Source: Pseudomonadota bacterium (lineage in GTDB: Bacteria > Myxococcota_A > Bradymonadia > UBA4248). Taken from it: 64,000 nucleotides of DNA. Under the pieces are notes generated by a model. The model had not been told where the DNA came from. It made no database searches and saw only the letters and a list, made by a program, of their open reading frames with translations. The translations under genes and the position numbers were made by a program. Where the stretch lies: NCBI GenBank assembly GCA_017441205.1, contig JAFRYG010000024.1, positions 6,046 to 70,045 of the forward strand, written 5' to 3'. Of the stretch, positions 11,262 to 57,121 are shown one piece after another. Numbering within the stretch: position 1 is the stretch's first letter; each line of letters starts with the position of its first letter.

Positions 11262-11561
11262 CACCTACCCCCTGTGCGGGAGTGCCCGCAACGCCCCGCA
11301 AACCTGAATCCCAACAATTTGCCTCAGTTCGCAAAAAGTCTGTTCACTTCACCTCCCAAATCTGATATTCATAAAAAGTATTCTCCGTCAAAACAAATAC
11401 ATGAACTCGCCATTACGCAATTATTTTGTTATGTTGCATAATGTATGGAAGTGAAGAAACGCAGTCTCTGCGCTTCATCGGACATAAACAGTCCATTTTT
11501 GGCGTTTGGTATTGTATCTGCGCCATGTTTGACGCATCACCTCAAGTACATCCGTATTCCC

Positions 11562-14500: not shown

Positions 14501-15323
14501 TCCCAATCCCTATCTGTTTGATCATGCCATACTGTACGTACCGCAGTTTGATCTGTTCCTGGATGGAACGGCGGAATTCAGCGGTACAAGGGAACTTCCT
14601 GCGATGGATCAGGATGCACAGGTACTCGTTCTGAGTGACGCATCCACCTACAAACTGCAAAAGATACCGGTTTCCAAACCATCCGACAATCACGTCCAGC
14701 AAACCTGGGAATTTGATCTGACCCAGGGACAGGATGTCTCATTTGCCTACCATGCAGACTATAGCGGTTACATGGCCCCGAGTTATCGTGAGCGCTACCA
14801 GATTGATTCGCTGCAGCGCGAGCGTCTCGAATCAGAAATTGCCTATAATATCCACGGTTCACAGCTTAAATCCTTCGAATTTTCAGATCTTTCCGATCTC
14901 GAAAAAGACGTTTCACTCAACTATACGGCAACGACGACGCTGAGTGACATCGTCAAGTCGGACGGCAGTCTGTGGCTGGTTACCCCCATGGTCATGCCGA
15001 GCCAGATGGCCAAGAGCTTTGCCTCATCCGCCAAGCGCCGAACACCCATTGTTCAGGCCGTCCCGTTTGTCATCGATAAAACGATTACGCTCATCCTGCC
15101 GCCCGGAGCCAAAGTGACATTGCCGGAAGCAGTCAGTGAATCCGGAAAGTTTGGTTCCTACACGATCACCTCGTCCCTTGCGGATAACCGTCTGACGACC
15201 CAGATTCAGCTTACGCTGACCCAGGTCAAGATTCAGCCCGACGACTATCCTGGGTACCTGGACTTTTTACAAAGCTATGATCGCCGTCTGAACACTCAGT
15301 TCCAAATCAATCTGTCCAAATAA
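11562..15323 (+). CDS. Large secreted protein (~1,250 aa) with a C-proximal transglutaminase-like catalytic domain (DUF3857/transglutaminase-type architecture).
   Basis: Signal peptide MLRKLSLSIALFLAICSPAQA. The catalytic triad context 'RRFGDCKDKASLLKVMLREAGIESEFVLART...LFDHAILYVPQFDLFLDGT' (Cys, His, Asp) can be read directly. The DUF name is from memory of domain architectures. Confidence 0.6.
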   Translation: MLRKLSLSIALFLAICSPAQAETPASGQAQKLAALMQQTAIADSLGAEDANLSEIVKIQSDDPILSRYLEWSRQYYSQKYQVSPKDSPLPGAVTQFFVSFPFASTSMFDFARPFSPESGYDTSKSQEGAMYPALNWMKYESTGNYSAVLAQECIDNSGFVTMFLATRIRIDEAKGIDAYLEIPSSTPVVAWMNGKRVLENIEKGPTPAPKYGERWPIHLNDGENILTIKVAALETQPAFYVFLTDRKTGNPIPFKIDLEQPIVSGPLDDSRPETSEPSVLLSLYKDQSNSPALRSYIAREIFSEEEADRLVNDLLFTDVEATSNLPPDDLELAILALNNHPKSLQFMVRAMKKHANDPRMQLLYARQMILASEDQGDTGVRFVDEWPQIHQNLVSMTAPVVNGISYEPLRRKLIALSELNAQQTLTAIREISKDPQKCPECERYLIPNMMGSLTDRYLVAEHLDYLEKQLEHDRNSSALLVDIMDGKLRRAVLRNDESELAKTLAEIQQSSESFFKIHPYDDYFWSFWLNVVSEYGLDSERVKASPELAQKLSDAGFSADADTWFMLYLSQRVNDPKRWQRYAEHCLKTGQTAEVISAYEMASRLQPQDTSLSERSEMMKKIANHPETEKAAASSEPSFETPYIIREIPDNRDANATGLVSLLDNRVVKIHENGLSSTYNQIAFQILDEQGLKAVRMMPINYSPTDEKLEIISVTTMKKDGSVRRLYETTEYNTADESVKMYYDQRQVVIEVPGLAVGDRIEYQFRRTQIQRAASSVSFFSDIYQLQSWFNRQWSRYTIIAPESTNVTLLRHTPAGNPTQVGTSKKEGGNIVITYEEKDTPRLLAEPQMPGATEVMPFLLVSTFRTWQELTDWFIDLASPQWKADDAIRAKVQELTKGIDDPFEKLKRIHSFVVKSTRYVALEFGIHGHKPYPAAQIFERRFGDCKDKASLLKVMLREAGIESEFVLARTRQNGDVTLDLPNPYLFDHAILYVPQFDLFLDGTAEFSGTRELPAMDQDAQVLVLSDASTYKLQKIPVSKPSDNHVQQTWEFDLTQGQDVSFAYHADYSGYMAPSYRERYQIDSLQRERLESEIAYNIHGSQLKSFEFSDLSDLEKDVSLNYTATTTLSDIVKSDGSLWLVTPMVMPSQMAKSFASSAKRRTPIVQAVPFVIDKTITLILPPGAKVTLPEAVSESGKFGSYTITSSLADNRLTTQIQLTLTQVKIQPDDYPGYLDFLQSYDRRLNTQFQINLSK

Positions 15324-15356: not shown

Positions 15357-18300
15357 ATGCGCAAAATAGCCTTTGTATTGGCCCTTTCCCTTACTGTTCT
15401 GTCATACGGCTGTGCGACGACATCCCAGTCACGCCAGGGCACATGGTCTGCATGGCCCTCGCAAGCCTCGATGTCCGATACGCTGAAATCCTCGATTGCC
15501 GACATGAAATCGGGCGATCTGCAGGCTGCCGATGCCAGATTGACGCCTGACGTCAGATCCGCCGATCCTGCAGCCAGTTACCTGCATGCAGAGATTACTG
15601 CCCTGCGCGGACAGACGGCTGCTGCCGCAGATTTGATGACGGATTTTATCGCACAAAACCCACAGAATCCGCTCGTTTCTGCAGCGCTCGTCAGGCTTCT
15701 CTCCCTGAGCAATACCTCCAGTTCTCCGCTCAACTGGGAAAAGGTATCCCAGCTGAAAGTCAACGATCCCTATGCCGCTGCGCGCCTCGTCATTCTTCAA
15801 AACCGGGCACTCAGGGAAACCCATCATCCCGACCTGAAGCATCCGACAGCCCTGCCCCTGGTAAAATGGCAATGGGTTGGACCATTTACCCCTTATATTT
15901 ACACGGGATTCGAATCTGAACAGCCATTTGACGGCGATCCCATCCTCGGCGAAAGCTACGAATTGGACGGCAAACGACTCGAACGCTTTCAATACCCTGC
16001 GGACAGTTCAACGCCCATGGCATCCTCCATGTCGGGCGTTTATGCCGCAGAAACCCGCATTCAGGTCGATCGTGAAATGCCGGTTCAAATCATCGTTCAG
16101 GGCGCGCAGCTCTATACGATATTTGTCGACGGCAATCCCGTACTCTCGCGCGATTTCTCGCAATTCGGCAAGGAATCCGTACTTGCTTCGCGCTTCGTTC
16201 TTCCCCAGGGAGAACATATCATTCGACTGCGTCTTGGATTGAATGCAGCCACCGCTTCCAATCACCACGTTGCCCTTTGGATTGCGCCGTCGGATTTCAC
16301 CAGCAAAACAGACGATCTCAGTGCCCTCAGGGAACTTGACGATTTGTCCGGCAAATTGCCGGATAAAACAGAAATCAAAAAACTCGAACGCATCGACCTG
16401 ACGCATATTCTCGGCAGCACGACAGAACCAGCTGCTGATGAAACCATGCGTTCGTGGATCGGTGCATCCATGGCAGTTCTGACCGGAAGACCCCAAATCG
16501 CCGAAACCCTGATTCAGGGAGCTCTTCAGAAAGATCCCGACGATATCATTGCCCAGTATTGGAAAGCCATGCGATATCGGGCAGACGCCGATCTTGATCC
16601 TTCGCTCAGATCAGAAAATACCATCCATATTCTCAAGGATATTGCAAAAAAAGCGCCGCAGCTCGCAGCGGTTCAGCAGCTGCTCATTTCGGAATTTCTC
16701 AAACAGCAGCAGCCCAAACAGGCACTCGAAATCTGGGAAAAACATAAGAATACCCTGCCCGATACTGCAGAAATGAATTCCCTGCTGAGCGAGCTGTCCA
16801 AAACACTCGAATGGTATGACATTTCGAAGGAATATGCCCTCAAAGCCATGCAGAAGGCACCGAATTCCTGTTCGCTCGCAGTCAATGCATTTAACATCCA
16901 GACGCAGCGCAATGCCTATACATCGTTCGAGCAGCTGTCTCCGCGAATCCAGTCCTGTCCATCCATCGTTCGCGCCTATTCAAAGCTGGAAGGCAATGAT
17001 GCCGCTGAAAAATCGCGCTGGTTCAATGCGCTCGATCAGCTCGCCAAAGACAATCCCAACGACAGCTCAATCCGCCTGGAAGCCATTCTGGCCAAATCTC
17101 CGACGGCCCCAGAAAGTGCTGCGCGCGAATTTCTCGAACTCCTCGATGCCGTGTCAAAAGGCTATTATCCCAATATTTCGACAGAATCGGCGCTGGTATT
17201 GATAGATAATCTGCGCGCCGCCGGACACGAAAAGGAAGCCGAAAACGTTTTGGCAAAGATTCTCGAGCTCTATCCTGTCGCAGAAGTTTTCAGAAATATG
17301 GAATGGCAGCACCACCAGGATCGTCCTTTGAGTGAACTGCGCATTGACGGCATGAATACCATCAAAGAATATCTCGCACAGAACCGAGACGATGCCGGCA
17401 GCTCCGTCATGCTCCTGGATTATGCAGCCACCCGGATTTTCCCCACGGGTGCAAAACTGGGACTGACGCATCAGATTTCGCGCGTTCTGAGCAAAGAAGG
17501 CAAAAATGAGGTCGGCGAAATCTATCTTCCCTCCCACGCATCAGTTCTCAGAATCCGTACGATAAAAGATGGAACATTCGAAATCGTCGAACCGGAAACC
17601 ATCGATTTTAAAGATTCTGTCACTGCCCCCAACCTCGAAGTCGGCGACTATGTTGAAGTCGAATATCTGACATTCGAACCAGCGGCTTCGCGCTACATTC
17701 CCCGAGTTGCAACCGATACATTTTTCTATGGTTCCAACCAGAGCCCGCTCGTCCGCTCGGAGTATGTGTTTGAATACCCCAAAGACTGGCATGTCGAGAT
17801 CGTGGAATCCGGCCCCCGGAATCAGATTCAGCAATCCTGTGCACCGGTTGGCGAATTCATGCGTTGCTCGGCAAAACGAGAAAACATCCCGGTATTCATT
17901 CCTGAACCGCGTGCGGCCTCTCCTATCGATCTGATACCCAATATCCAGGTTTATTATCATTACGACTGGGATTACATCCGCCAGGGACTCCATGAATCCA
18001 TTACACGCCAAACGCGCGTAACCCCATACGTTCAGAGATTTTACGATAAACTTGCCGTTCCCGAAGGCGATTCGGTCTGGGAACATGCGAGAGCCATCTA
18101 CGATCAAGTCGTTGAAAGCATCGACGAAAGTGAAACGATGCGCACCAATGATGACGAAACCGCGACGAATTCCATCACGCGTGGAACCGGTTCGCGATTC
18201 ATTACCCTGAAATCGCTCTACGATATTGCCGACATTCCGAATTATTTTGCGCTCGTACACTCCATCCTGGCACCGGAAAACAGCGAACAGCTGCCTTCCA

Positions 18301-19130
18301 TGTACGAAAATGCCTATGTCACCCTGCTCGTCGTCGAAACCGAAAAGGGACCGGCATATCTTCAGCCGACAGAAGATTATATCCCCTTTGACTACTTATC
18401 GGCAGATCTTCAGGGACAGACGGTCATTCCCGTCGATCCCGCCTACGAAAGATTCATTTCGCGCCAGGAGAATCCGGAACTGCAGAGAGCAACGATCGCT
18501 ATTCAATACGAAATTTCTGAAGACGGCACAGCCAAAGCAAAATCGACTGAAGTCATGAGAGGCTCCCGGGCTCTCGTCATGCGCAACTTTCTCAATACGG
18601 TCAAAAACGATAATGACAAAGCCCAGCAGGTCGTTCAGAACAGCCTTGCCAATAACTATGGCCGCATCGAACTGACGCGCCTGGAGCACGAACAGCTCGA
18701 CGACAAGAATAAGCCCCTGACACTGCACTACGATTTCGATATCGCGAGTTTTGCCGCAGCATCAGATGGTAAGCTGGATATTATTTCGCGCATATTCGCA
18801 TATAATCTCGTCAATCAGTTTGCCCAGCTTCCGCCTTCCCAAAGGAAATATCCTGTACTCATCGATTCCGACATGCTTTCGGAACGAACGCTCACGTTCC
18901 ATGCTCCTGCCGGTTATACCTGGGATACGACGACACTGCAGGACATCAGTCTGGAGACAAAATTCGGCAAATTCAGCCGTCATACCCAACTCAACGCCGA
19001 GACCCTCGAAGTCAAAGAATCCATACAAATCCGTCCTCAGCGCATCCAGCTTGATCAGTATGCGGAATTCAGGGAATTCTGCCTCGCGGTGGATGAAGCC
19101 CAGAGAACTGTGATTTCGGCCAAAAAGTAG
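15357..19130 (+). CDS. Paralog of the preceding large protein: a lipoprotein of similar size and architecture whose equivalent triad positions appear substituted (likely inactive).
   Basis: Lipoprotein signal (LSYGCATTS). The segment 'RGTGSRFITLKSLYDIADIPNYFALVHS...YENAYVTLLV...YLQPT' aligns by eye to the active-site region of 11562..15323 with C>S, H>N and D>Q. Confidence 0.5.
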   Translation: MRKIAFVLALSLTVLSYGCATTSQSRQGTWSAWPSQASMSDTLKSSIADMKSGDLQAADARLTPDVRSADPAASYLHAEITALRGQTAAAADLMTDFIAQNPQNPLVSAALVRLLSLSNTSSSPLNWEKVSQLKVNDPYAAARLVILQNRALRETHHPDLKHPTALPLVKWQWVGPFTPYIYTGFESEQPFDGDPILGESYELDGKRLERFQYPADSSTPMASSMSGVYAAETRIQVDREMPVQIIVQGAQLYTIFVDGNPVLSRDFSQFGKESVLASRFVLPQGEHIIRLRLGLNAATASNHHVALWIAPSDFTSKTDDLSALRELDDLSGKLPDKTEIKKLERIDLTHILGSTTEPAADETMRSWIGASMAVLTGRPQIAETLIQGALQKDPDDIIAQYWKAMRYRADADLDPSLRSENTIHILKDIAKKAPQLAAVQQLLISEFLKQQQPKQALEIWEKHKNTLPDTAEMNSLLSELSKTLEWYDISKEYALKAMQKAPNSCSLAVNAFNIQTQRNAYTSFEQLSPRIQSCPSIVRAYSKLEGNDAAEKSRWFNALDQLAKDNPNDSSIRLEAILAKSPTAPESAAREFLELLDAVSKGYYPNISTESALVLIDNLRAAGHEKEAENVLAKILELYPVAEVFRNMEWQHHQDRPLSELRIDGMNTIKEYLAQNRDDAGSSVMLLDYAATRIFPTGAKLGLTHQISRVLSKEGKNEVGEIYLPSHASVLRIRTIKDGTFEIVEPETIDFKDSVTAPNLEVGDYVEVEYLTFEPAASRYIPRVATDTFFYGSNQSPLVRSEYVFEYPKDWHVEIVESGPRNQIQQSCAPVGEFMRCSAKRENIPVFIPEPRAASPIDLIPNIQVYYHYDWDYIRQGLHESITRQTRVTPYVQRFYDKLAVPEGDSVWEHARAIYDQVVESIDESETMRTNDDETATNSITRGTGSRFITLKSLYDIADIPNYFALVHSILAPENSEQLPSMYENAYVTLLVVETEKGPAYLQPTEDYIPFDYLSADLQGQTVIPVDPAYERFISRQENPELQRATIAIQYEISEDGTAKAKSTEVMRGSRALVMRNFLNTVKNDNDKAQQVVQNSLANNYGRIELTRLEHEQLDDKNKPLTLHYDFDIASFAAASDGKLDIISRIFAYNLVNQFAQLPPSQRKYPVLIDSDMLSERTLTFHAPAGYTWDTTTLQDISLETKFGKFSRHTQLNAETLEVKESIQIRPQRIQLDQYAEFREFCLAVDEAQRTVISAKK

Positions 19131-19273: not shown

Positions 19274-20602
19274 TTAAATTTTATTGACGCGCCCCATGAA
19301 GAGAGCGGTATTGGTATCGGTTTCCATCAGGAAGAACAAGAAGGGGTGATCGACGACAATTTCGATCGGATTCGAGGGAGGCGGAAGCATTGCCTTTGTC
19401 CGCATAACCACTGCGGTTGCGGCAGCAGCTTCGGCACCTTTTTCGTTCACATCGATGTAAGCTTTTTGAAGCACCTCGGAAATCATGAGTTCGTCGGAAT
19501 CAGACATGCGCGAGAAATCTGCATCGTGTGTAAAAGCCGTCGTCATGCCGAGAGAATTCAGCATCTGCCTGAGGGAAAGGCTCGTTTCGATGCGGAATTT
19601 CGGCATTTTCAGCTTCACCATGCGACTCGACATTGCTTCGCGCATTTTGCGAATCTCTTCTGCGGTCAAAGTCGCGGTAACCTTATTCAGGGCTTCGTCG
19701 ACATCGACGCCATCGGCAACTTTCGGCAGGATGACAAACAGCGAATAACCGCCGATGAATGACAAATCCACTGCGATAAAAGCTTCATTATCCAGATAGA
19801 CGCGATGCTTTTTGTTATGCTGCATCATATCGACCTGGATGACGCCGTCGTGCGTTTTAAAATCGGCCTTTTGCGTTGCCGATTCACTGAACGAATCAAA
19901 CCATGGGGCCTTAAAATAGATGGCATTGGTCAAAACGACGCGCGTCAGTGAGCTGAGAATACCCGGAGGCAGAATATCCTGGATTTTGCCCTGAGTGGAT
20001 TCTGCAACGTCAGCATTGATGGTTTTGCGGGCATTTTCCGTATCGCCGATGAAATCGAGCTGACGCGGCTTAACGTCGTAGGCTGCAGATACACGCTCCA
20101 TATAATCAGGCAAAAGATTGCTCGTTTTTTCAACCCAGATGCGATTGTCTATCGTGACCGTAACATTTTCGTCAGAGGCAGACTCAGCCATTGCCTTCTC
20201 GACATCTTTACCCATTTCGCTCAAATTCTTTGCATCCGGCAGCCCAAGAGCCTTTCTCATCTCGGAAATTGTGGTTCCGCATGCACCTTCGTAGACCATT
20301 CCCAAAGCTCTCTGTGCCGAGAAAGGAGAAACGACAGCCGAACCTTCCTGCATATTTCTGAGCATATTCAGACCGAAATTGTTATTGGCATCGCTCCATG
20401 CAGCCATTTCGATTGCCGCATCAGAACTCACGACACACTCTTTTGGGGCAGCTTTGGGAGCCGGAACGTTGGCATTATCGGAATTTTCCGCAGTCTGGTT
20501 CTCGGAAACAGCGGTTTCGACGTTTTCGGGAGTTTGCTTTTTGGAGCATCCCACGAGACACATTGCGGCAATGATACCTGTAATTATCAGAGATTTTTTC
20601 AT
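19274..20602 (-). CDS. Serpin-family lipoprotein (serpin 2) with a canonical inhibitory hinge.
   Basis: Start re-set to MKKSLIITGIIAAMCLVGCSKK (lipobox). The core 'VVSPFSAQRALGMVYEGACGTTISEM' and the hinge 'EKGAEAAAATAVVMRTKAML' match the inhibitory E-x-G-T/A-E-A-A-A-A-T consensus. C-terminal 'VDHPFLFFLMETDTNTALFMGRV'. Confidence 0.8.
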   Translation of the reverse strand: MKKSLIITGIIAAMCLVGCSKKQTPENVETAVSENQTAENSDNANVPAPKAAPKECVVSSDAAIEMAAWSDANNNFGLNMLRNMQEGSAVVSPFSAQRALGMVYEGACGTTISEMRKALGLPDAKNLSEMGKDVEKAMAESASDENVTVTIDNRIWVEKTSNLLPDYMERVSAAYDVKPRQLDFIGDTENARKTINADVAESTQGKIQDILPPGILSSLTRVVLTNAIYFKAPWFDSFSESATQKADFKTHDGVIQVDMMQHNKKHRVYLDNEAFIAVDLSFIGGYSLFVILPKVADGVDVDEALNKVTATLTAEEIRKMREAMSSRMVKLKMPKFRIETSLSLRQMLNSLGMTTAFTHDADFSRMSDSDELMISEVLQKAYIDVNEKGAEAAAATAVVMRTKAMLPPPSNPIEIVVDHPFLFFLMETDTNTALFMGRVNKI

Positions 20603-20907
20603 AACAATCCTGGAGCAACAATCAAACATCAAAACGAATGCCCGTTTCGAAATCATCCGTCCTGTAAATGGAAATCGTGGAACTGACAAAACCGGAAAAC
20701 CGGGATTCATCCGAATATCCGGAATTTCCGATCACTGTATGGTAATACTAACGATAAATGCGATGTTTTAGAAAGAAAAAATTGAGCAAACATCTTCCGG
20801 AATACGGTCTTTATACTTTACCCTAAAACGTGGATATAATATGATATAATCAGTTCGATATGCCAAAGACTGTCCTCCGCAAGGAAGGCGTGTCTTGAGT
20901 CTGCTCA

Positions 20908-22686
20908 TTGCAGATCAGCAAAATACGGGAAAGCAATATGCGTCTAAGAGAACTCAAAAACGGTGTTCAAATCTGTCCGGAAATCACACTTGATTCGCTG
21001 CTTTATACCCATAACAGCATTGCACTCTACCTGGCATCCGACACTGACAGTGGGCATACACTGGTTCATCTTTTGCCGGATATTGAGGATGCCTCCCTCG
21101 AAGTTCTGCAAAAAGTCGTTGAGTTCTATAAAGATAACCTCAAGCTCGAAACGCGCTGCGGTCGTTTTGAAGAGTTTTTATATTTTTCAGAGCCATTTCC
21201 ATTGGGTGAATACATGTTTGAGTGGCTTGAACGCCGGGAACGCGTAGCCCTTCCCGAAGCCCTCAAACGCATCATCTCTTTGCTCAAGATACTGCAGCAG
21301 GCGCACGAAAAGGACATTTACAATGGCCGCATTACGCCTCAGTCCGTTCTTCTTGAGCGTTCGGGAGTTGCCTTTGGTCTGAGAATGATGGGACTCGGCG
21401 TAGCCCAGGCTTTGCCCCCCTCGCTCAGATACGATATCGACTGGTTCGACTATACGTTCGACCTGGAAGGCATGAGCCCTGCTGCCGTTGATATCTATGG
21501 TATTGCCATCATTCTGATGGGATTGGTCAGCGGTGAATCCGGAATCGACAGCTTCGAAGCCACCGGTCTGCTGCCGCAATCCCTGCGCGGCGGCATTCTT
21601 CAACAGGCCATGGAACGCGCACTCGCACTCAGAATCGACGCATACCCAACCATCCTTGCGTTCAGCCTCGATCTCGAAGCTGCGCTGCTCGAAATTGACG
21701 ACCGTCAGGGCGAAGTCTACGTCGGCGACCTCGTCGGTTTTGAATCTGCCATAAAAAGCATCTCAAGTATTCATGAGGAAAAGCCCGAAAACTCAGGCGT
21801 CTGGAGTTCGATGTTCGAGACGCTCGAACAGAATGAACGCTCGAGCCTTTTGTGCTCCCTGACATCCCTGACCGCAATCCCTGCCCTCGGCCCCGAAGAT
21901 GACGATGATATTACCAAAGTAACCACATTGCCTCAGGCCCTCGTCGGCATGCAGCGTATCAAATCCGCACATCAGCACGAGGACGAATGCAAAACCGATA
22001 TCCTCGCAGCTCCAATGGCTCTGCAGGACGAGGTAGACAATTCATCCGCCGAGGCCGCAGAGGTAGACAATTCATCCGCCGAGGCCGCACCCGAGGAACA
22101 GGCACCTGCGCAGCCGGATAAACCCGAAGACAAATTCGCCAGTATCAAAAATCTCGAAGCCGAACTGCAGAGCGATGACGAGGAAGATGATGCTCCAACG
22201 CGCGTCATGATGCGTCCGAATTATGCCACCATCAGTTTTGGGCAAACCGGACAGGGCGTCAACTCTTCCATCGAAGAAGTCATTAAGAATTCTTCATCCG
22301 AACGGGCAACCGTCACGACCATGCTGGATCGCATCCAGCAGGCAACCGTTATCGAATTCGAGTGCGAACTCAAACACGACATCCAGTATGATCCCAATGA
22401 TCCTGTTGCATTTCCACCGGAAGACGAATCCCAGGACAGCCAGTCTGACGATTCACCGAATTCTTCTCTCGTCAGGAATGCAGCAGAAGCCAAGTCAAAA
22501 ACCAAAACCGGCAAATCACCAAATATCAATGCCCCGCAAAAAGCTGATGTCGTCGCCCACACATCCACGCACTTCAAGGCACCCAGCAAATTCAGCAAGG
22601 GCCAGAAGTTCCTCCTGATATTCCTCATCATCGTTGTCATTGCTCTGGGAATCGCGATGGCCATGCATTATTACCATTTAATATAA
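20908..22686 (+). CDS. C-terminally membrane-anchored pseudokinase (degenerate Hanks-type kinase fold).
   Basis: Kinase-like subdomains are present, but the catalytic loop reads 'NGRITPQSVLL' where HRDLKPENILL is expected (Asp lost) and DFG reads 'MGLG'. Subdomain IX-like 'DIYGIAIILMGLVSG'. Acidic repeat DNSSAEAAEV x2. C-terminal TM 'FLLIFLIIVVIALGIAMAM'. Confidence 0.45.
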   Translation: MQISKIRESNMRLRELKNGVQICPEITLDSLLYTHNSIALYLASDTDSGHTLVHLLPDIEDASLEVLQKVVEFYKDNLKLETRCGRFEEFLYFSEPFPLGEYMFEWLERRERVALPEALKRIISLLKILQQAHEKDIYNGRITPQSVLLERSGVAFGLRMMGLGVAQALPPSLRYDIDWFDYTFDLEGMSPAAVDIYGIAIILMGLVSGESGIDSFEATGLLPQSLRGGILQQAMERALALRIDAYPTILAFSLDLEAALLEIDDRQGEVYVGDLVGFESAIKSISSIHEEKPENSGVWSSMFETLEQNERSSLLCSLTSLTAIPALGPEDDDDITKVTTLPQALVGMQRIKSAHQHEDECKTDILAAPMALQDEVDNSSAEAAEVDNSSAEAAPEEQAPAQPDKPEDKFASIKNLEAELQSDDEEDDAPTRVMMRPNYATISFGQTGQGVNSSIEEVIKNSSSERATVTTMLDRIQQATVIEFECELKHDIQYDPNDPVAFPPEDESQDSQSDDSPNSSLVRNAAEAKSKTKTGKSPNINAPQKADVVAHTSTHFKAPSKFSKGQKFLLIFLIIVVIALGIAMAMHYYHLI

Positions 22687-25917: not shown

Positions 25918-26781
25918 TTATGCTTTGCCGCCACGTCGTTTCAAAGCACTCTCGAGCGTCTGTTCCATCAGACTGATCACGGTCATGGGCCCAACGCCGC
26001 CGGGAACCGGCGTAATATAGCTCGCCACTTCAGACGCCGGGCCAAAATCCACATCGCCGTGAATTACGCCGTCCGGCGTTTTCGTAAACCCGCAGTCCAC
26101 AACGATCGCGCCCGGCTTAATCCAGTCTCCTTTGACGAGTTCCGGAGAACCTGCCGCAACGACGATCAAATCCGCGCGACGCACATGGGATGCAAGATCC
26201 TTCGTACGGGTATGACACATCGTCACCGTCGCATTGCGCCGCTGAAGCATCAGACTCATGGGTTTTCCAACGATATTGCTCCGGCCGATAACCACGGCAT
26301 CCAATCCTGTCAAATCCAGATGATACGCATCCAGAAGACGAATGATCCCGCGCGGCGTACACGGCTCAAACGCATTCGATTCCCCGAGCAGCAGTGCCCC
26401 CATCGCCGCCCGCGTCAGTCCATCGGCATCCTTATCGGCCCGAACGCGGTTCGGCAATGCAACCGCATCCAGATGCTTCGGCAGCGGAAGCTGAACAAAT
26501 ACAGCATCACATTCCGGATCCGCATTGCAGGCATCTATCCGCTCCTCCACTTCAGCGGAGCTCACATCTTCATCAAAATGAAATACTTCGTGACGAAATC
26601 CAAGCTTCTCCGCCATTTTGCACTTCGTGCGAACATAACTCGCACTTGCCGGATTCTCACCCACCAGAATGACACACAGTCTGGGCGCCGTTTCCGGCGA
26701 AAAATGAGATAAAACTTTTTCACGAATATCGTTCTGAATTGAAAGCGAAACCGCTTTTCCATCGAGAATTGTCGCCGTCAT
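25918..26781 (-). CDS. folD: Bifunctional 5,10-methylene-tetrahydrofolate dehydrogenase/cyclohydrolase.
   Basis: Full-length match to the FolD family by eye (ILDGK...YVRTK...PLPKH..D.DG...NIVGKP...TV..CHSRT...ADIVV.A.G.P..V...W...GA.V.DVG). Confidence 0.9.
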   Translation of the reverse strand: MTATILDGKAVSLSIQNDIREKVLSHFSPETAPRLCVILVGENPASASYVRTKCKMAEKLGFRHEVFHFDEDVSSAEVEERIDACNADPECDAVFVQLPLPKHLDAVALPNRVRADKDADGLTRAAMGALLLGESNAFEPCTPRGIIRLLDAYHLDLTGLDAVVIGRSNIVGKPMSLMLQRRNATVTMCHTRTKDLASHVRRADLIVVAAGSPELVKGDWIKPGAIVVDCGFTKTPDGVIHGDVDFGPASEVASYITPVPGGVGPMTVISLMEQTLESALKRRGGKA

Positions 26782-26786
26782 TTGGA

Positions 26787-27314
26787 TCATGCCTCCCGAA
26801 GTATCTTCAATATTTCAGTAATATCCAGCCCATCCCGATTCCACGGGCGCTTGAGCGAAAGCAGCCGCCCACCGCGGGATTCCCAGCGCGGACCATAACC
26901 CGCGCGATCATCGATCAGCCATGTTCCGGGTTGAGCACAGATTTCCTTGGGTTGACCAATTAATACATTTTTCGTGTGCAGGTTCTCATAAACCCATTGC
27001 CACTTGCCATACGAACTCTCAGGAAAAGGAGCCGGTGTCGTCAGAACCACGCAGGTCGCACCGGTTTTCTGTGCCGTTTCCCACAGCTCATCCGTCCACG
27101 GAAGCTTGGGCAGATTCAGCCACCACTGAATTCCCTGTGAACGCACTTTTCCCCAAAAATCTCCCTTGGGTATCGACAATCCCCACTCTCCGACTTCCGC
27201 CCACTGGGCTTCCGTATAACTTGCAGGATCGTCCCCAAACAACTTCACCAGGCCATAGTGCATATCGACCAGTACACCATCCAAATCAATACAGATGACC
27301 TTTGGTTTTTCCAT
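26787..27314 (-). CDS. HAD-superfamily 5'(3')-deoxyribonucleotidase-like protein (NT5C family).
   Basis: HAD motif I 'ICIDLDGVLVDM' at the N-terminus. Small (~175 aa) and Trp-rich like the NT5C family. Confidence 0.55.
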   Translation of the reverse strand: MEKPKVICIDLDGVLVDMHYGLVKLFGDDPASYTEAQWAEVGEWGLSIPKGDFWGKVRSQGIQWWLNLPKLPWTDELWETAQKTGATCVVLTTPAPFPESSYGKWQWVYENLHTKNVLIGQPKEICAQPGTWLIDDRAGYGPRWESRGGRLLSLKRPWNRDGLDITEILKILREA

Positions 27315-27407: not shown

Positions 27408-29396
27408 TCAGCCCATCCTGCCCAGACCATCCAGAACGACGCGCATCGAAGCCGGTCTGTCATAGGGATTCGGCGAAAGGCAGGATTCGACCAGCTGGGC
27501 TATCGAAACCGGAACCATGGGATTAATCTGACGAATCGGTTCAAAAATGCCCGACATCTGAGCCGTATAAATTGCAACTGCATTCGAACCATTATAAGGC
27601 AGACGCTGAGTAAAACACTCATAACATACGACGCCGAACGAAAACACATCCGCCTGAACCGTAATCGGCTCACCACGGGACTGTTCCGGAGCCATATAAA
27701 ATGGCGTCCCAATCCCCTGGCCAGGAATATTTGCACACGGCATATCCATCGTACTCGCGATGCCGAAGTCCATCAGATACGGATGAAACGAATCCGCTTC
27801 TATCATGATATTCGCGGGTTTTAAATCGCGATGGATGACGCCCCTGTCATGTGCAGCCACAAGTGCTTCTGCAACCTGTATCAACAGCCTCAGGCTCATC
27901 ATCAGCGGCAGCGGTGATTCCTTCAGATGCTGACTCAGATTCTTGCCGTTGATGTAGCGCATCGTAAAGAAATACAATCCTTCGAGCTGCTCCAGATGAT
28001 AAGCAGGAAGAATATAGGCATGCTCCAGATCCCGCGTAATTTTCAATTCGCGTTTAAAACGCTGAAGCCAGGCCGCATCCGAAACAAGCTCCGGACGAAG
28101 CACCTTGAGCGCAAGAATCTCCGTCAGAATCGTATCCAGAACCTTATAGACCGTCCCGGTTCCGCCAGACCCCAGCTCATCCAGAATCTGATAGCGCGAA
28201 CGCGCCAGAACCTCTGCCGGAGAAATCGTCACAGCAGTCCTCAGACCCGAATTGATCGTCCAGAAACTGTTGGAACTGCGATGGACAACGCGCGTTTCAA
28301 AGCCTTCAATGGCCGGAGATGTCAGCGTGTCTTCAAAAACGATATCCCCGCCCGACGACCGCTCAACCGGCGTTTCTGATGATTCCGGCCCTCTGGCATG
28401 CAGCGATCTGTTGCGGTCACTCGATGGCACTTCCACTGAAATACAGGCTTCATCTCCCGTAATGAGATTGATGACGTCACTCCGAAATTCCACACTCTCC
28501 GTTGTCAGCACCGGCGGAAAATCATCAAAATGCCCCCGCATGATATCCATGCGGACTTCCGGCGGCTGATAAGTCCCAAACGCCAGGATAATCTCCTCAA
28601 GTGCCTGCGCAAGCTGACGATAGGATCCAAAACGCTGCTGCGGACGCTCCGCAAGTGTATGGTGGAAAAACTCTATCGCAATCTTCAGTGACTCACCGGG
28701 AATATTCGACCGGTTCAGCACATCCATCATCCCCATCCAGCGAGGTTCCCATTCATCCGGCTGAAATTCACTTGTAATGCATTGATAAAGCAGAGCACCA
28801 ACCGAATAGACATCGCTTTCAACGCTCACTGCTTCGTGGCGTCTCCATTCGGGCGTGTCGAACTTTTCATTCATTTCCGAGTCAAAGCGGAATCGACGAC
28901 GCATCTCAGCCTCGACGAATCCCTTCACATAGACTTCACCCGTCTGCGACATCAAAATATACGGCGGTATCAGCGAAAAATGAGTCAGCTGCCTCTGATA
29001 GGCTTCGTCCAGAACATTGACGGCATCTCTGAGCACCGACGCAAAAAATGCCGGACTCAGTGTATTGCCGCCCTTGCCGGCCAGCTGCGACATCTCACCA
29101 ATCGACAGATGCGCCCACTCATAGGGATAAACCGCATACGCCCCCTGCGAACGGCTCAGCCCAAGTTCGCAGAGCGGAATAAGCCCCGGCATCTGAATAT
29201 GCGAATAACGGCGACAGGCATCCTGGAAACAAAGCCGAAGCTCCGCAGTCCCGCACAATTCCTTGCTCAACGCAATGATATTGTACCAACGACTGCTATC
29301 CTCCTCGGCTGTCGCAAGATAGTACTCATAGTAACGCGGCGAATCCAGCGTCTCTCGCACAACGTAACCAGGAAATTGTCCAACCCGTTGAAACAT
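27408..29396 (-). CDS. Tandem kinase protein: an N-terminal pseudokinase domain plus a C-terminal active Hanks-type Ser/Thr protein kinase.
   Basis: The C-terminal domain carries GSGGTGTVYK, ALK, HRDLKPANIMI, DFGIAS and TPFYMAPE. The N-terminal domain keeps the kinase fold (subdomain IX 'SDVYSVGALLYQCIT') but has HFSLIPPYIL for HRDLKPENIL and KGF for DFG, and lacks the Gly loop. Confidence 0.75.
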   Translation of the reverse strand: MFQRVGQFPGYVVRETLDSPRYYEYYLATAEEDSSRWYNIIALSKELCGTAELRLCFQDACRRYSHIQMPGLIPLCELGLSRSQGAYAVYPYEWAHLSIGEMSQLAGKGGNTLSPAFFASVLRDAVNVLDEAYQRQLTHFSLIPPYILMSQTGEVYVKGFVEAEMRRRFRFDSEMNEKFDTPEWRRHEAVSVESDVYSVGALLYQCITSEFQPDEWEPRWMGMMDVLNRSNIPGESLKIAIEFFHHTLAERPQQRFGSYRQLAQALEEIILAFGTYQPPEVRMDIMRGHFDDFPPVLTTESVEFRSDVINLITGDEACISVEVPSSDRNRSLHARGPESSETPVERSSGGDIVFEDTLTSPAIEGFETRVVHRSSNSFWTINSGLRTAVTISPAEVLARSRYQILDELGSGGTGTVYKVLDTILTEILALKVLRPELVSDAAWLQRFKRELKITRDLEHAYILPAYHLEQLEGLYFFTMRYINGKNLSQHLKESPLPLMMSLRLLIQVAEALVAAHDRGVIHRDLKPANIMIEADSFHPYLMDFGIASTMDMPCANIPGQGIGTPFYMAPEQSRGEPITVQADVFSFGVVCYECFTQRLPYNGSNAVAIYTAQMSGIFEPIRQINPMVPVSIAQLVESCLSPNPYDRPASMRVVLDGLGRMG

Positions 29397-29731: not shown

Positions 29732-32700
29732 TTGCAATCCATGGAATCTTTTGAACTGCTCGACAAATGGTTTGTTCGCTCCACCCGAAGACTCATCAGT
29801 ATGACAGAATCCCTCATTTGTCAGGCAGGAGCTCGCCCTTCCATTGCTGAAGCCGAAGGCTTTTCCATCCTCAATCAGAGATCTGCCGCTCTCCTCAGTC
29901 AGGACATTCCGGATCTTTCGCTGCCGGCAACGTCATCCACGCTGGTCTGCCACCGCGAACGACATCTCTTGGATGCTCTCGAACTCAAAATGCCGTTCGA
30001 ACTCCAGGCCGCATCCGCCCAGGAAGCCGTCTATCACTGCCTCATCGCCCATGATATCGCAGCAAAACTCAATATCCCGGGGCTCTGCTCTGTCGATGAC
30101 ACACTCGCTCAGCGCCTCGAAGGCGCCAGAATGCCAACGCGCGAAATGATCGATATGATCACCCCAATCGGTCAGACATCCTTCCCGAATTTCATCGACG
30201 AAAATGCCATTATCTCGATTATACGGAACAGTTTCGAACGGTTTAATCCACTCTTTTCCATCGACCTCAATATCTTCGAAGCTGAATCCATACAGGATGA
30301 CGGCATTTGCTTCGTCACAACCGGACGGTATCGGGAACATGCAGATATTTTGTGCAAAAAACTCAACGAAATCGGGTTTTCTGCCGGATACCTCATTCTA
30401 AAACTCATCAAGCCATTCCCGGAACACGAGATTACCGGACTCCTGCACAATCAAAAGCATATCATTGTCCTCGGCGAGGACGATATCTCCGAACAATCCT
30501 TCATTCTGTCCGGTTTGCATGAAATACAGACGTCGTTCAGCGTCAGCTGGCAGCTTCTGTACATCCCCATGCAAAAAGAATCGCGTTTCGAAAAACTCGC
30601 TTCAATCCTGAATATCGCCCCCGGAGACCTCGAATCTGCCTTCGATAATGATTCCGTTTCTTCCGGTTTTGTGATCGGGGCTGCCCCCGGTGGCCAGATG
30701 AGCCGCGGACTGCTGTTCGATCTGGCAGCTGAACTCTCCAAAATGAACGGATATTCAGCGTTTCCCACCAAAAGTACTCACCCCCTCATCAACTCGATCG
30801 GCATCGAAAAAACGCGATCAAAACACCAGGGAACAGAAAAAAGACTCATTGATCTCCTTTTCCTGTCCCATCCCGGACTTATCGACATTCAGGATATACT
30901 CAATGATGTCGCCCCACATGGCATCATTCTCGTCCTCGGCAGAAGCGTCGAAGAAGCATCCATCTGGCCGCTCTTCAGTTTCGACATGAAAAATACGATA
31001 GAGAAAAAAGATATCTCCGTCTATTTTCTCCCGGGATCGCTACTTAACGAATACCAGATGATCGACAAATACGGTTCGTACGTCGTTCACGGAGCTCTGC
31101 TCGGGCTTTTTGCCAAGCGCGCACAGGAGAATCTCGATTTTCAGGCACTTCCGAAGAACCGCATCCTTTCCGGCGAAGCATTCAACCGCCTCATGATCGG
31201 TTCAACTTCGTTTTCTGAAGTCGATCGTTCCGTTAAACAAAGCGACCGATTCGATCCCTATTTTGCGCCGCAAATCAATCTGCCGAGGATGCTGCCAAGT
31301 GTCCGGAATCGTACAAATTCCGCTGACTGGCGTTCAAGCGTCCGAAATTTCTTCGTCCGCGGGCAGTCTACAGACGCCCATCATCACCCGCTTCCCGGCC
31401 TTTCCATCCGTCCGGCAGCCCTTAACCCGTACCTCGAATCCCTCGAAAGAGAACACTTCTATCCGCTGATCGTTACGCGAATAACCGGAAATCCCAAACT
31501 TCAGACGCAGCGGCTGGATGAAACCCTGCGGTCAAAATTCGGCGATCTTTCTGATCGCCCGCAGGCTGCGCAATCGCTGACACAATACATCGCCTGTGCC
31601 GAAAAAATTGCCGATGCCTCATTGCATATCACTCCGGCCAAAACACTGCTCAACGAAGCTCTCGAATCCGTGCACAGGCTTTATCCGGACTTCGATACCT
31701 TCATTTTCTCGGGAATACGGGAATTCATCGCCGGCCTGGATTCGGAATGTCACCTCGTCGGTCTGAATCCTCATACGCTGCTCGATTTGTACGTTCTTTC
31801 GGTTCGTGCTGCGCGCCGCAGCCGCATGCATGACGTCGGTGCAGAAATCCGAACACTGGTCACTCAGCTGCGCGAAAAGCTCCGCGTCGATGATGCTTAC
31901 GGGCCCTTCGGTATGTCTGAATCGGTGCTCAAAGATGCATTTGGTCCAGACGCCACAGAATTGCTCGACACAAACGAAATAGCGCATGATCTGCAGCACC
32001 GTCACTGCGGCCACAAACAGCACGATCCCGAGCGGCTCACGCGGATGTTCGATACCCTTAAAACCCTCGAATCCTTCCTCAAATCCATCGAATCATCCGA
32101 CGATCTCATCTTCACCTATCCCCCCGAAATTCAGGTCAAAACGACTTACGACCGGGTTCGCACGGTCTGTCACAATGAACCCATCGCTGTCGCAAACGGG
32201 CTGTTCGATGCCATCAGCCAAAAACATATCGAGGCATTCAAAGCCATGAGAATTGCCCGCCTCGATATCGACAACGCGTTTGATCCCAACTATCACGGCG
32301 ATATTCTTGAACATTTTACCTGGCAGGATCTCTCCGAAGATGAGCTGCGGCTGCTGCCTGTCATTTGTATCGCCGAAACCACCGCCCATCTCTACGCACA
32401 GCTATCCCCGTTGTCACGTCTGATTCGTGCCGGAAAGCCGCTCGATGTCCTCGTCTTTGAATCGACTTCCAAAGCGATGAGCACGGATCCCGTTACCAGC
32501 CAGCCCAGTTACGACCCGGGATTCAGTTATCTTGCCACCGCATTCCGCGAAGCATTCGTCGCTCAGTCCACGCTTGCAAGACCCGATCATCTCGTGGCCA
32601 ATCTCGCCCGCATGAACCAGTACCTCAGGCCCGCAATCACAGTCGTTGCCTGCCCCACATGGTCTTGGCGTCTGCCTGCCAGAGTACAGCTCGAAGCAGC

Positions 32701-33652
32701 CCATTACGGACGCACTGCGCCCATGTTCCAGTACACCCCCAACATCGATAAATACCATTCCGAACGCTTCAACATTAACGGCAACCCACAGCCCGATCTC
32801 ATCTGGCCCACATGTTCCTTCTCGTACATCGACGAAGATGGAAACATCCGGCAAATGGAAGGCACATTCACTTTTGCCCACGCGCTTGCACTGGAACCCG
32901 GTTACCACAAATACTTCCGCATTCTTCCCAATGAAGCATGGAATGATGAATTGATCGAAATCGGTGAATTCCTCAAAAATCCGTCTTTCGACAAACCGCA
33001 AATTCCATACATCTGGGGCGTCGTCGATTCTCAGCTTCGCAAATGCATCATGACGAGAGATGTCGCCAACGCCTGCATCGACAGGATGCAGCGCTGGAAA
33101 GCCCTCAAGGAACTCTCGCGCGTCACCCCCGTTCAAAACGACGCATTGTCACAGCATGCCTTCGATGATGTTTCCGAAAAACTCGAAGCATCCCGGCAAG
33201 CCTTCAGCGATGTTTCTGAAAAGCTCGAAACATCGCAGAATGTTCTGCGCAATACGGCCAATGTACTTACGCAATGTCTGCGCGAAATACACATCCAGAT
33301 CGAGAATTCCCCCGAGGAATCCTACGATCTCAACGAAGCCATGCGCGAAGAATCTGCATACATCGAAGGACTCGCTGAAGATTACAAGGACACACCTCAG
33401 GAAACATCAAAAGAAGAAATGACTGCAGCCCCGCAGGATACCCCCCCGGTCGCAGAGCAGCCGCAGCAGCCGGCACTTCCCTATATCGAAACGAACAGAT
33501 GCCTGAGCTGCGGTGCATGTGTCAGCATCAATGACAAAATCTTTGGCTTCAATGAAAACGAACAGGCCATTCTCATCAAACAGGATGCTACATGCGATGA
33601 ATGCCGCGAAGCCGCCGAAACATGCCCGGCTGAATGCATCCATGTTTCATAG
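29732..33652 (+). CDS. Large (1,306-aa) hypothetical cytoplasmic protein ending in a single-cluster [4Fe-4S] ferredoxin-like domain.
   Basis: The C-terminal ~55 aa read 'CLSCGACVSINDKIFGFNENEQAILIKQDATCDECREAAETCPAEC', a Cys pattern typical of ferredoxin (CxxCxxC...CP). The ~1,200-aa body has no motif I can name. The true start could be M at 29801. Confidence 0.45.
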   Translation: MQSMESFELLDKWFVRSTRRLISMTESLICQAGARPSIAEAEGFSILNQRSAALLSQDIPDLSLPATSSTLVCHRERHLLDALELKMPFELQAASAQEAVYHCLIAHDIAAKLNIPGLCSVDDTLAQRLEGARMPTREMIDMITPIGQTSFPNFIDENAIISIIRNSFERFNPLFSIDLNIFEAESIQDDGICFVTTGRYREHADILCKKLNEIGFSAGYLILKLIKPFPEHEITGLLHNQKHIIVLGEDDISEQSFILSGLHEIQTSFSVSWQLLYIPMQKESRFEKLASILNIAPGDLESAFDNDSVSSGFVIGAAPGGQMSRGLLFDLAAELSKMNGYSAFPTKSTHPLINSIGIEKTRSKHQGTEKRLIDLLFLSHPGLIDIQDILNDVAPHGIILVLGRSVEEASIWPLFSFDMKNTIEKKDISVYFLPGSLLNEYQMIDKYGSYVVHGALLGLFAKRAQENLDFQALPKNRILSGEAFNRLMIGSTSFSEVDRSVKQSDRFDPYFAPQINLPRMLPSVRNRTNSADWRSSVRNFFVRGQSTDAHHHPLPGLSIRPAALNPYLESLEREHFYPLIVTRITGNPKLQTQRLDETLRSKFGDLSDRPQAAQSLTQYIACAEKIADASLHITPAKTLLNEALESVHRLYPDFDTFIFSGIREFIAGLDSECHLVGLNPHTLLDLYVLSVRAARRSRMHDVGAEIRTLVTQLREKLRVDDAYGPFGMSESVLKDAFGPDATELLDTNEIAHDLQHRHCGHKQHDPERLTRMFDTLKTLESFLKSIESSDDLIFTYPPEIQVKTTYDRVRTVCHNEPIAVANGLFDAISQKHIEAFKAMRIARLDIDNAFDPNYHGDILEHFTWQDLSEDELRLLPVICIAETTAHLYAQLSPLSRLIRAGKPLDVLVFESTSKAMSTDPVTSQPSYDPGFSYLATAFREAFVAQSTLARPDHLVANLARMNQYLRPAITVVACPTWSWRLPARVQLEAAHYGRTAPMFQYTPNIDKYHSERFNINGNPQPDLIWPTCSFSYIDEDGNIRQMEGTFTFAHALALEPGYHKYFRILPNEAWNDELIEIGEFLKNPSFDKPQIPYIWGVVDSQLRKCIMTRDVANACIDRMQRWKALKELSRVTPVQNDALSQHAFDDVSEKLEASRQAFSDVSEKLETSQNVLRNTANVLTQCLREIHIQIENSPEESYDLNEAMREESAYIEGLAEDYKDTPQETSKEEMTAAPQDTPPVAEQPQQPALPYIETNRCLSCGACVSINDKIFGFNENEQAILIKQDATCDECREAAETCPAECIHVS

Positions 33653-56707: not shown

Positions 56708-56834
56708 ACCTTCACTACGGGCTCTCTATTACAGGCAACCGCACCGCAGATGTCCAGAAAAATCACTCGTTTTTCTTCGACAAAATCAAATGCTCTTATA
56801 ACAAGAGAGTCGATAACCTCAAAGCCGCTTTGTT

Positions 56835-57066
56835 GTTCGTAGCTTTGAGTTTTGAGTTTTGAGAGGTGAATGAATGACCTGAGAATGAGAATTGGACTGA
56901 GAACAAGAAGACGACTGATGTTAGTGAATAGTGAATAGTGAGTAGTGAATAGTGATGAGAATTTATAGCTTATAGAGAGGGTCGATGTTATCTGTACTTT
57001 AGCAAAAGTCTCGGTGATTGCTTTACGCCCAACTCATAACTCCCAACTCCCAACTCATGATGAGCC
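56835..57066. repeat. Simple-sequence block (TTTGAGTTTTGAGTTTTGAG; GTGAATAGTGAATAGTGAGTAGTGAATAGTGA) ending in CCCAACTCATAACTCCCAACTCCCAACTCATGA. This is the right arm of the inverted-repeat pair with 42.02 kb.
   Basis: Direct reading. A 22-bp exact reverse-complement match to 42021..42042. Confidence 0.75.
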
Positions 57067-57121
57067 ATAAAAAAAAGAGCACCCTTCCGGGTGCTCTCTG
57101 CAATTTCAAAGAACTTATGGA

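Follow-up and report, generated by a model that had tools for sequence, protein, structure and literature searches.

There are precedents for a pseudokinase that is fused to an active kinase and has a regulatory or docking role, namely the JH2-JH1 pair of the Janus kinases (JAKs) and the tandem kinase proteins (TKPs) of plants (PMC8761531, PMC13519141). In the JAKs, as in GCN2, a pseudokinase that is presumed to be regulatory stands N-terminal to an active kinase, and plant TKPs such as WTK1/Yr15, RPG1, Sr62, WTK3 and WTK4 are soluble fusions of kinase and pseudokinase domains. Tandems of this kind play a central part in the cytokine signalling of animals (JAKs) and in the disease resistance of cereals (TKPs), and the control exerted by the dead domain is still debated. 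Bacterial pseudokinases have remained largely unexplored experimentally (PMC12599244). The atlas of bacterial Ser/Thr kinases (STKs; bioRxiv 10.1101/2025.01.12.632604) and its companion review (PMC12599244) describe seven families of pseudokinases without any that is joined to an active kinase, and the word tandem is absent from the bioRxiv version of the atlas and from the review. Leaving aside the journal version of the atlas and the myxobacterial kinome of Perez et al. 2008, we found no description of bacterial tandem kinases in the literature searched, and the fusion of a pseudokinase with a kinase seems undescribed for bacteria. Here we analyse a gene of this architecture in a 64-kb window, that is, the stretch of 64,000 nt of Pseudomonadota bacterium GCA_017441205.1 taken from contig JAFRYG010000024.1 (GTDB Myxococcota_A; Bradymonadia; UBA4248). 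Its product is a soluble protein in which a fully degraded kinase fold is fused with an intact Hanks kinase, and this fusion is conserved and apparently obligate.

A fully degraded kinase fold fused to an intact Hanks kinase

The gene and the three parts of its product are laid out as follows.

27408..29396, minus strand: whole gene, soluble tandem pseudokinase-kinase of 662 aa (open reading frame; stop codon 27408-27410)
28527..29387, minus strand: N-terminal pseudokinase domain, residues 4-290, bilobal fold (family profile, AlphaFold2, Foldseek)
28212..28526, minus strand: inter-domain linker, residues 291-395, predicted to be disordered (AlphaFold2, lengths in the family)
27411..28211, minus strand: C-terminal Hanks-type Ser/Thr kinase domain, residues 396-662 (Pfam Pkinase, invariant motifs)

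The ATG at 29396 is backed by the N-terminus MFQRxGQFPGY, which is kept among the aligned homologues; the identical protein in NCBI (P0001) has its annotated start 12 residues further in. A first reading made from the sequence alone had proposed that an N-terminal pseudokinase and a C-terminal Hanks kinase share one cytoplasmic polypeptide devoid of transmembrane (TM) segments. Profile searches, structure prediction and conservation within the family all bear out the two-domain build. The same holds for the location, since a Kyte-Doolittle scan across the 662 residues revealed no TM segment (maximum 1.63). The sole hydrophobic peak was rejected as a membrane helix because it corresponds to the buried alphaE helix of a kinase. 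In sequence and in predicted structure, the nearest relatives of both domains are the PknB-type kinases, namely PknB, PknA and PknI of M. tuberculosis and StkP of S. pneumoniae. In contrast to them, the window protein lacks a TM helix, PASTA or any other sensor, carries an extra dead kinase fold in front, and scores 251 against the 450-bit cutoff of the NCBIfam model PknB_PASTA.

The C-terminal domain had been described as a complete Hanks kinase, and so it proved to be. Pfam PF00069 (Pkinase) matches residues 402-653 with E=2.2e-49 and 168.7 bits, against a gathering score of 31.7 bits, and the full set of motifs is in place.

28155-28172, minus strand: G-loop, G409xGGxG414
28104-28106, minus strand: VAIK lysine, K431
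28047-28049, minus strand: alphaC glutamate, E450
27825-27833, minus strand: HRD, H522-R523-D524
27810-27812, minus strand: catalytic Asn, N529
27762-27770, minus strand: DFG, D543-F544-G545
27684-27692, minus strand: APE, A569-P570-E571

All these motifs, together with D583 and R647, are invariant in the family alignment, which comprises 32 full-length homologues. With every catalytic residue present, the C-terminal domain should be a phosphotransferase, as judged at the sequence level.

The kinase fold of the N-terminal half becomes evident when its family is taken into account. In isolation, the N-terminal 300 residues matched Pfam Pkinase with E=7e-4 and 19.5 bits, under the 31.7-bit gathering score and over the C-lobe only, and a single-sequence search of PDB sequences with the same half reached PknB with E=2.4e-5, again only in the C-lobe. 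We then used a profile of 26 family N-domains, cut from the 32-sequence alignment. Its positions 12-268 span residues 13-276 of PknB, that is, the entire catalytic domain, with E=2.3e-24, and the profile also matches StkP, PknA, PknE and PknI. The test set in advance was whether profile searches would fail to recognise the N-terminal region as kinase-like; with the family profile, they recognised it. The AlphaFold2 (AF2) model of the domain, built from the 26-sequence alignment, reached a predicted local distance difference test score (pLDDT) of 93 and a predicted template modelling score (pTM) of 0.91, with the five strands and alphaC of the N-lobe and the helices of the C-lobe in canonical order. 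When this model was compared with the PDB by Foldseek, PknB, PknI and PknA were returned at E~1e-13, with TM-scores of 0.63-0.77. Profile, model and structural search thus agree in giving the N-domain the protein-kinase fold that a pseudokinase has to possess.

The other mark of a pseudokinase, loss of the catalytic triad, is also found in the N-domain, where the beta3 Lys is replaced by I41, the Asp of HRD by S141 and the Asp of DFG by G159. The corresponding segments are the following.

29268..29279, minus strand: beta3 equivalent, I40-I41-A42-L43 (aligned to PknB K40)
28974..28982, minus strand: H139-F140-S141 in place of HRD (PknB alignment)
28914..28922, minus strand: G159-F160-V161 in place of DFG (PknB alignment)

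The sequence-only reading had noted the absence of a Gly loop and the presence of HFS instead of HRD, and both observations were confirmed. The place of the Gly-rich loop is occupied by TLDSPRYYEY, which contains no glycines, and the loop is absent across the family; residues 139-141 do align to HRD. Column counts showed that the position of the VAIK lysine is occupied by R, Q, E, T, K, S, I or W across the family. The His equivalent to that of HRD is invariant, and the Asp position holds S, T, G or A, with Asp in 0/32 members. The Lys and Asn positions of the catalytic loop correspond to I143 and Y146 and are variable. The substitute for DFG had been given as KGF, which is off by one residue: DFG aligns to G159-F160-V161 and not to K158-G159-F160. 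At the Asp position of this motif, the 32 members have G (21), H (8), D (2) or A (1), and the Phe is kept in 31 of them; next come E162, which is conserved, and an activation segment predicted to be helical. What the N-domain retains is scaffold, namely the His of HRD, the Phe of DFG, the APE equivalent T181-P182-E183, D195 in alphaF and R255 in alphaH-alphaI. Because the Gly loop, the beta3 Lys, the catalytic Asp and Asn and the metal-binding Asp are gone, the N-domain appears to be a true pseudokinase that cannot carry out canonical phosphotransfer, and canonical ATP binding is very probably lost as well. JH2 of the JAKs retains ATP binding; the N-domain of the window protein, unlike JH2, has neither Gly-loop nor Lys, and the homology between the two is limited to the fold.

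Selection on the pseudokinase and its proposed role

Per-region information content, computed on the 32-sequence full-length alignment, revealed that constraint is inverted between the two domains.

beta1-beta3: N-domain 2.2 bits, C-domain 3.85 bits
catalytic loop: N-domain 2.2 bits, C-domain 3.85 bits
APE-alphaF: N-domain 2.9 bits, C-domain 3.39 bits
alphaF-alphaG: N-domain 3.0 bits, C-domain 2.75 bits
alphaH-alphaI: N-domain 2.58 bits, C-domain 2.39 bits

In the N-domain, constraint peaks at APE-alphaF-alphaG and is lowest at the nucleotide pocket. The N-domain diverges faster than the C-domain (26-62% versus 54-85% identity to the window protein) and retains 16 invariant columns in the 26-sequence alignment, down to 26% identity. 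Its most constrained stretch (28737..28856, minus strand; invariant columns) comprises T181-P182-E183, the alphaF residues D195 and Y197, and Q212-P-D-E-W-E-P-x-W220. The last of these, QPDEWEPxW (residues 212-220), is a family-specific motif in the alphaF-alphaG region.

The APE-alphaF-alphaG region forms the C-lobe surface through which kinases dock substrates and partners. The distribution of constraint has the look of a signature of a domain kept for its surface and not for its active site. Because selection sits on this surface and not on the nucleotide pocket, we read the N-domain as a putative protein-binding module, which would act as a built-in docking or allosteric partner of the kinase. 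It may recruit substrates or regulators, or dimerise with a kinase domain, and in this way would control the active domain tethered to it, standing in for the extracytoplasmic sensor domains of membrane-bound bacterial STKs. Taken as a whole, this explanation, in which the gene product is a cytoplasmic signalling kinase built from two Hanks-type kinase folds, is on balance a probable one.

The linker may contribute to such control. It is ~100 aa long in the window protein and 58-132 aa long in the family, and includes a conserved linear motif (residues 367-386; 28239..28298, minus strand; column counts). The consensus is [ED]-T368-R369-phi-phi-H-R-S-S-x-S-phi-R379-x-x-S-P383-x-L-R386 (short form ETRxLHRSSxSFR), with T368 present in 24/32 members, R369 in 29/32, R379 in 31/32, P383 in 29/32 and R386 in 27/32. 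The window protein has ETRVVHRSSNSFWTINSGLR at this place and, with W379 and S383, deviates at the near-invariant positions of R and P. The setting of the Thr, which follows an acidic residue and has hydrophobic residues at +2/+3, is similar to the phospho-acceptor context preferred by mycobacterial Ser/Thr protein kinases, and the typical ligand of FHA domains is pT-x-x-[ILV], where pT stands for phosphothreonine. The motif is most simply read as a candidate regulatory phosphorylation or docking site.

Several observations weigh against the docking or allosteric reading. In the full-length AF2 model, built from the 32-sequence alignment, two confident domains are separated by residues 298-389 with pLDDT ~27, there is no confident packing between the domains (pTM 0.49), and the linker motif is docked onto neither of them. 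These results bear on a specific sub-case of that reading, a JAK-like cis-autoinhibition in which the pseudokinase would pack on the kinase of the same chain and hold it off until a signal arrives, for instance phosphorylation of the linker motif. The position of the pseudokinase N-terminal to the kinase, as in JH2-JH1, the apparently obligate fusion and the conserved S/T-rich motif directly upstream of the kinase domain all favour this mechanism, for which the TYK2 JH2-JH1 structure is the precedent (PMC8761531). On the other hand, the AF2 model does not fix with confidence where one domain lies relative to the other, a linker that is long and variable in length suits a loose tether better than a fixed interface, and JAKs and the window protein are homologous in the kinase fold only. 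Thus, the domain order is that of JH2-JH1, whereas the interface is not predicted here. JAKs and GCN2 also differ in being eukaryotic tyrosine or eIF2alpha kinases with FERM/SH2 or HisRS-like domains. An intramolecular JAK-like interface is not supported by the model, and we regard cis-autoinhibition as rather unlikely.

A second point concerns the polar residues E52, E77, H139, E162, K178 and R185 of the N-domain, which are invariant or nearly so. Among them, E52, E77, E162 and K178 leave room for non-canonical nucleotide binding or catalysis, for which SelO and SidJ provide precedents (PMC13519141, its refs 41 and 42). The N-domain would then be alive and perform AMPylation, glutamylation or flipped nucleotide binding. 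We hold this to be unlikely, since a selected active site would not vary freely at the triad-equivalent positions, as the N-domain does, and since its nucleotide strands and catalytic loop are its least conserved parts.

The remaining points concern the window copy and possible partners. This copy lacks the usual activation-loop Thr, having CANIPGQG where the family consensus is LTxxGQG (27693-27761), and with this loss and the changes R379W and P383S its regulation may differ from the family norm. No particular partner of the pseudokinase is backed by any experiment or interaction prediction, and comparison of the family loci revealed no conserved gene neighbour pointing to a pathway.

Origin of the family and other bacterial multi-kinase proteins

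About 50 full-length homologue clusters, with 38-100% identity, have the same two-domain layout. The named members come from metagenome-assembled genomes (MAGs) labelled "Proteobacteria bacterium", Bradymonadales or Myxococcota. This breadth bears on the possibility of an artefact, in which an error of sequencing or assembly joined two neighbouring kinase genes, or of an N-terminal half that is a functionless relic. The marginal Pfam score of that half on its own could be taken to point in this direction. Against a merger, the same unbroken reading frame occurs in the ~50 clusters, which derive from independent NCBI, ENA, JGI and Logan assemblies. Against a relic stand the confident fold and the 16 invariant columns, and a decaying relic is ruled out because it would not persist across such divergence. 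The artefact explanation is, in sum, extremely improbable.

We searched a library of 1.84 billion representative proteins with the N-domain profile. Results showed three 50%-identity clusters of the family (E 1e-135 to 1e-108), all of 640-680 aa, and two further specific matches that are short (163 and 199 aa) and were taken as gene fragments. Neither a complete stand-alone pseudokinase nor this pseudokinase in any other architecture was found in the library. A search of contigs with the most conserved peptides, TPxYMAPEQ and PYLMDFGIA, yielded nothing but single-domain kinases of generic type, spread over many phyla. The fusion is apparently ancient and obligate within a Bradymonadales/Myxococcota-like clade.

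Regarding the origin of the two domains, the N-domain profile scores 18-48 bits on the C-domains of its own family and 56-94 bits on unrelated PknB-like kinases. A recent internal duplication is ruled out, as its own C-domains score below unrelated kinases. Because the profile matches these kinases better than the partner C-domains, it is more likely, to judge by the scores, that two different kinase lineages fused and that one copy then degenerated. A fusion origin has also been proposed for some plant TKPs (PMC8761531), which are polyphyletic and were formed by fusion or duplication (PMC6170490, PMC8761531); that of WTK1 parallels the origin proposed here. Plant TKPs differ in their descent from receptor-like kinases or receptor-like cytoplasmic kinases, in acting in effector-triggered immunity and in being, for most of the cloned ones, kinase-first, whereas here the pseudokinase comes first. 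That descent does not apply to the window protein: both of its domains are nearest to bacterial PknB-type kinases and all of its homologues are from bacterial MAGs. The label "tandem kinase protein" would thus denote an architectural analogy with plant TKPs and not homology or a shared function.

Among the catalogued bacterial pseudokinases, ActPs1-3 and GLW are Hanks folds in which all three triad positions are degraded, as in the N-domain described here (10.1101/2025.01.12.632604, PMC12599244). The catalogued families (ActPs1-3, GLW, CP1, DYD and DLHK) have differing motifs, and for none of them has a fusion with an active kinase been described; the clade of the window protein is not actinobacterial. 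The GLW family is defined by GLW at the HRD position, LLLL/W where the beta3 Lys would stand and a C-terminal TM segment (PMC12599244), whereas the window protein has H-F-S (H-[YF]-[ST] in its family), a variable beta3 position and no TM segment. CP1 is characterised by a linked COG3899 ATPase, and DLHK by DEAD-like helicase/DNA2 domains together with the DLHK motif (PMC12599244). In the 662-aa window protein Pfam detects only the two kinase-like domains and no COG3899, helicase, DNA2 or PQQ partner.

The first reading had also held pseudokinase-kinase fusions to be rare in bacteria. This stands for ordinary PknB-like kinases, of which 0/66 in a similarity-ranked sample contained a second kinase domain, but it does not stand for the proteins that score highest with the N-domain profile. 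In the library, 444 clusters matched this profile at E<=1e-30, above the score expected of a single domain; the ceiling for single domains was taken as the best score, 94 bits, in a small sample, equivalent to E~6e-22 in this library, and most of the 444 clusters should be multi-domain if that ceiling holds. They represent, as a lower bound, ~0.07% of 616,035 kinase-like clusters. Domains were counted in the best 150 library matches, 147 of which lie outside the family. At least two near-complete kinase-like domains, and up to 9-10, were present in 140 of these 147; intact (K, D, D) and degraded triads were mixed in 53, and the order from pseudo to active was found in 9. P0188 and P0232 (pseudo-to-active) and P0158 and P0162 (active-to-pseudo) are examples with at least two Hanks-type domains, often with mixed triads. 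The multi-kinase proteins of named source are bacterial and mostly from Chloroflexota/Anaerolineae (P0158, P0139/P0271, P0188, P0232, P0121), and the gene for P0162, on a contig of 165 kb, is flanked by a bacterial ribosomal/rpoA operon and a gene for a PP2C phosphatase. They belong to families unrelated to that of the window protein and owe their N-profile scores to generic similarity among kinases, added up over several domains. The degraded domain of the nine pseudo-to-active proteins usually keeps the beta3 Lys and often the Asp of DFG, whereas in the family of the window protein the Gly-loop and the three triad residues are all gone from the N-domain. Tandem kinase architectures in bacteria are therefore uncommon, recurrent and polyphyletic. 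We tentatively suggest that tandem modules may have arisen independently in a Bradymonadales/Myxococcota-type (predatory) lineage and in Chloroflexota, with the dead domain as the sensor or docking half.

The same matches include long arrays, P0121-P0267, metagenomic and bacterial proteins in which 3-10 Hanks-type kinase-like domains stand in a row, often as a degraded string that ends in one or two intact domains. P0133 (2911 aa), P0127 (2573 aa) and P0121 (1536 aa) are examples, and those of named source are from Chloroflexota. No description of such arrays was found in the literature searched.

Genomic neighbourhood and significance

The 64 kb of the window are ordinary DNA from the chromosome of a Gram-negative bacterium, in which infC, xseA, mgsA and folD are accompanied by genes for M16 peptidases and for an outer-membrane beta-barrel protein. 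The base composition is unremarkable, and a promoter and terminator scan gave nothing above chance. Two genes follow the kinase.

26787..27314, minus strand: HAD/NT5C-like hydrolase of 175 aa, downstream neighbour, 93 bp past the kinase stop
25918..26790, minus strand: folD (Pfam THF_DHG_CYH E=1e-31, THF_DHG_CYH_C E=5e-65)

That the kinase adjoins an NT5C-like gene and folD had been noticed at the outset and is correct, folD being assigned by Pfam and NT5C through relatives that carry PF06941. The 175-aa protein has no Pfam match of its own and weakly matches the 5'(3')-deoxyribonucleotidase structure 2jao (E=0.019). The order kinase, NT5C-like, folD is also found at locus L081, where the kinase is 62% identical, and the order kinase, NT5C-like at L087 (Bradymonadales; kinase about 46% identical); the 175-aa neighbour shares 72-79% identity with its counterparts behind the kinase at these two loci. 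The arrangement of kinase and NT5C-like gene is absent at L083, L084 and L086, and more distant NT5C-like genes adjoin folD or sit elsewhere with no kinase beside them. That the kinase, the NT5C-like gene and folD form a functional operon was ruled out as a general feature, since the arrangement is absent at those three loci and in distant members. The adjacency is therefore inherited synteny of a subclade and not a conserved module, and no functional tie with nucleotide or folate metabolism is supported. The NT5C-like gene overlaps the start of folD by 4 bp and is translationally coupled to it, a pairing that also occurs without the kinase at L090. Between the same genomes this gene is more conserved than the kinase (72-79% versus 46-62%).

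An FHA protein elsewhere in the window had been put forward as a possible target of the kinase.

52585-54618: FHA protein (Pfam FHA E=2.5e-11)

The protein at 52.6-54.6 kb is real, as the Pfam match shows, whereas its connection with the kinase did not hold up, there being no conserved linkage. An FHA protein near the L083 family member was considered as a sign of such linkage and rejected, as it is not orthologous to the one in the window. In the segment 50921-54618 (minus strand), the FHA domain is combined with a coiled coil of ~550 aa in a 677-aa protein that adjoins an AAA+ ATPase of 517 aa. Beside these genes, at 54824-59026, lie two 630-aa open reading frames without recognisable domains.

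The neighbourhood also bears on whether the protein might be an immune sensor or decoy, as proposed for plant TKPs, in which the dead kinase would mimic a protein targeted by an effector from a phage or a competitor and the live kinase would trigger defence. The architecture is analogous to that of plant TKPs (PMC6170490, PMC8761531), the PADLOC kinase models PD-T4-6, mad6 and MkoA match the protein, and the N-domain is the faster evolving of the two. However, what the PADLOC models match is just the generic catalytic domain, and partner genes are absent from the vicinity. For the defence kinases PD-T4-6, MADS MAD6 and BREX PglW the scores remain under curated cutoffs, with 196 versus 460 bits for NCBIfam MAD6 and 83 versus 990 bits for PglW. 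The neighbours are housekeeping genes and include no defence genes; synteny among close relatives is chromosomal and stable, and base composition, as stated, is unremarkable. Relatives of the pseudokinase were found on no phages, and plasmids yielded only generic kinase matches. The surface motif of the N-domain is conserved family-wide, unlike what arms-race diversification produces. A defence role is not supported, and the decoy explanation is very unlikely.

Other genes of the window are listed here as observations in their own right.

1811-3082, plus strand, and 19274-20710, minus strand: two serpin genes (Pfam Serpin E=1e-70 and 1e-99)
3145-4422: transglutaminase-like gene
11445-15323, plus strand, and 15357-19130, plus strand: adjacent genes for giant proteins of 1292 and 1257 aa with TPR, DUF3857 and DUF3858 or transglutaminase-core domains
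20908-22686, plus strand: open reading frame of 592 aa with no Pfam match and weak kinase-like similarity at residues 90-178 (PADLOC PD-T4-6 E=2e-4; CIPK23 E=0.05)
29732-33652, plus strand: 1306-aa protein, divergent from the kinase gene, PFOR domain-II-like at residues 193-251 and with a C-terminal 4Fe-4S ferredoxin domain, no other part being recognisable

The 592-aa product may be another highly degraded kinase-like protein, or the similarity may be due to chance.

Taken together, the family adds to the known tandems a conserved, apparently obligate fusion in which constraint is cleanly inverted between the two domains, and the survey around it indicates that proteins with several kinase domains recur in bacteria as an architecture that has been overlooked. 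The finding opens no new category of biology. Pseudokinase regulation would be easy to model in a bacterial protein that is small and soluble and has two domains and, if the docking or allosteric reading is true, the family would represent a prokaryotic counterpart of JAK JH2-JH1 and of plant TKPs, and a simple bacterial system for pseudokinase control.

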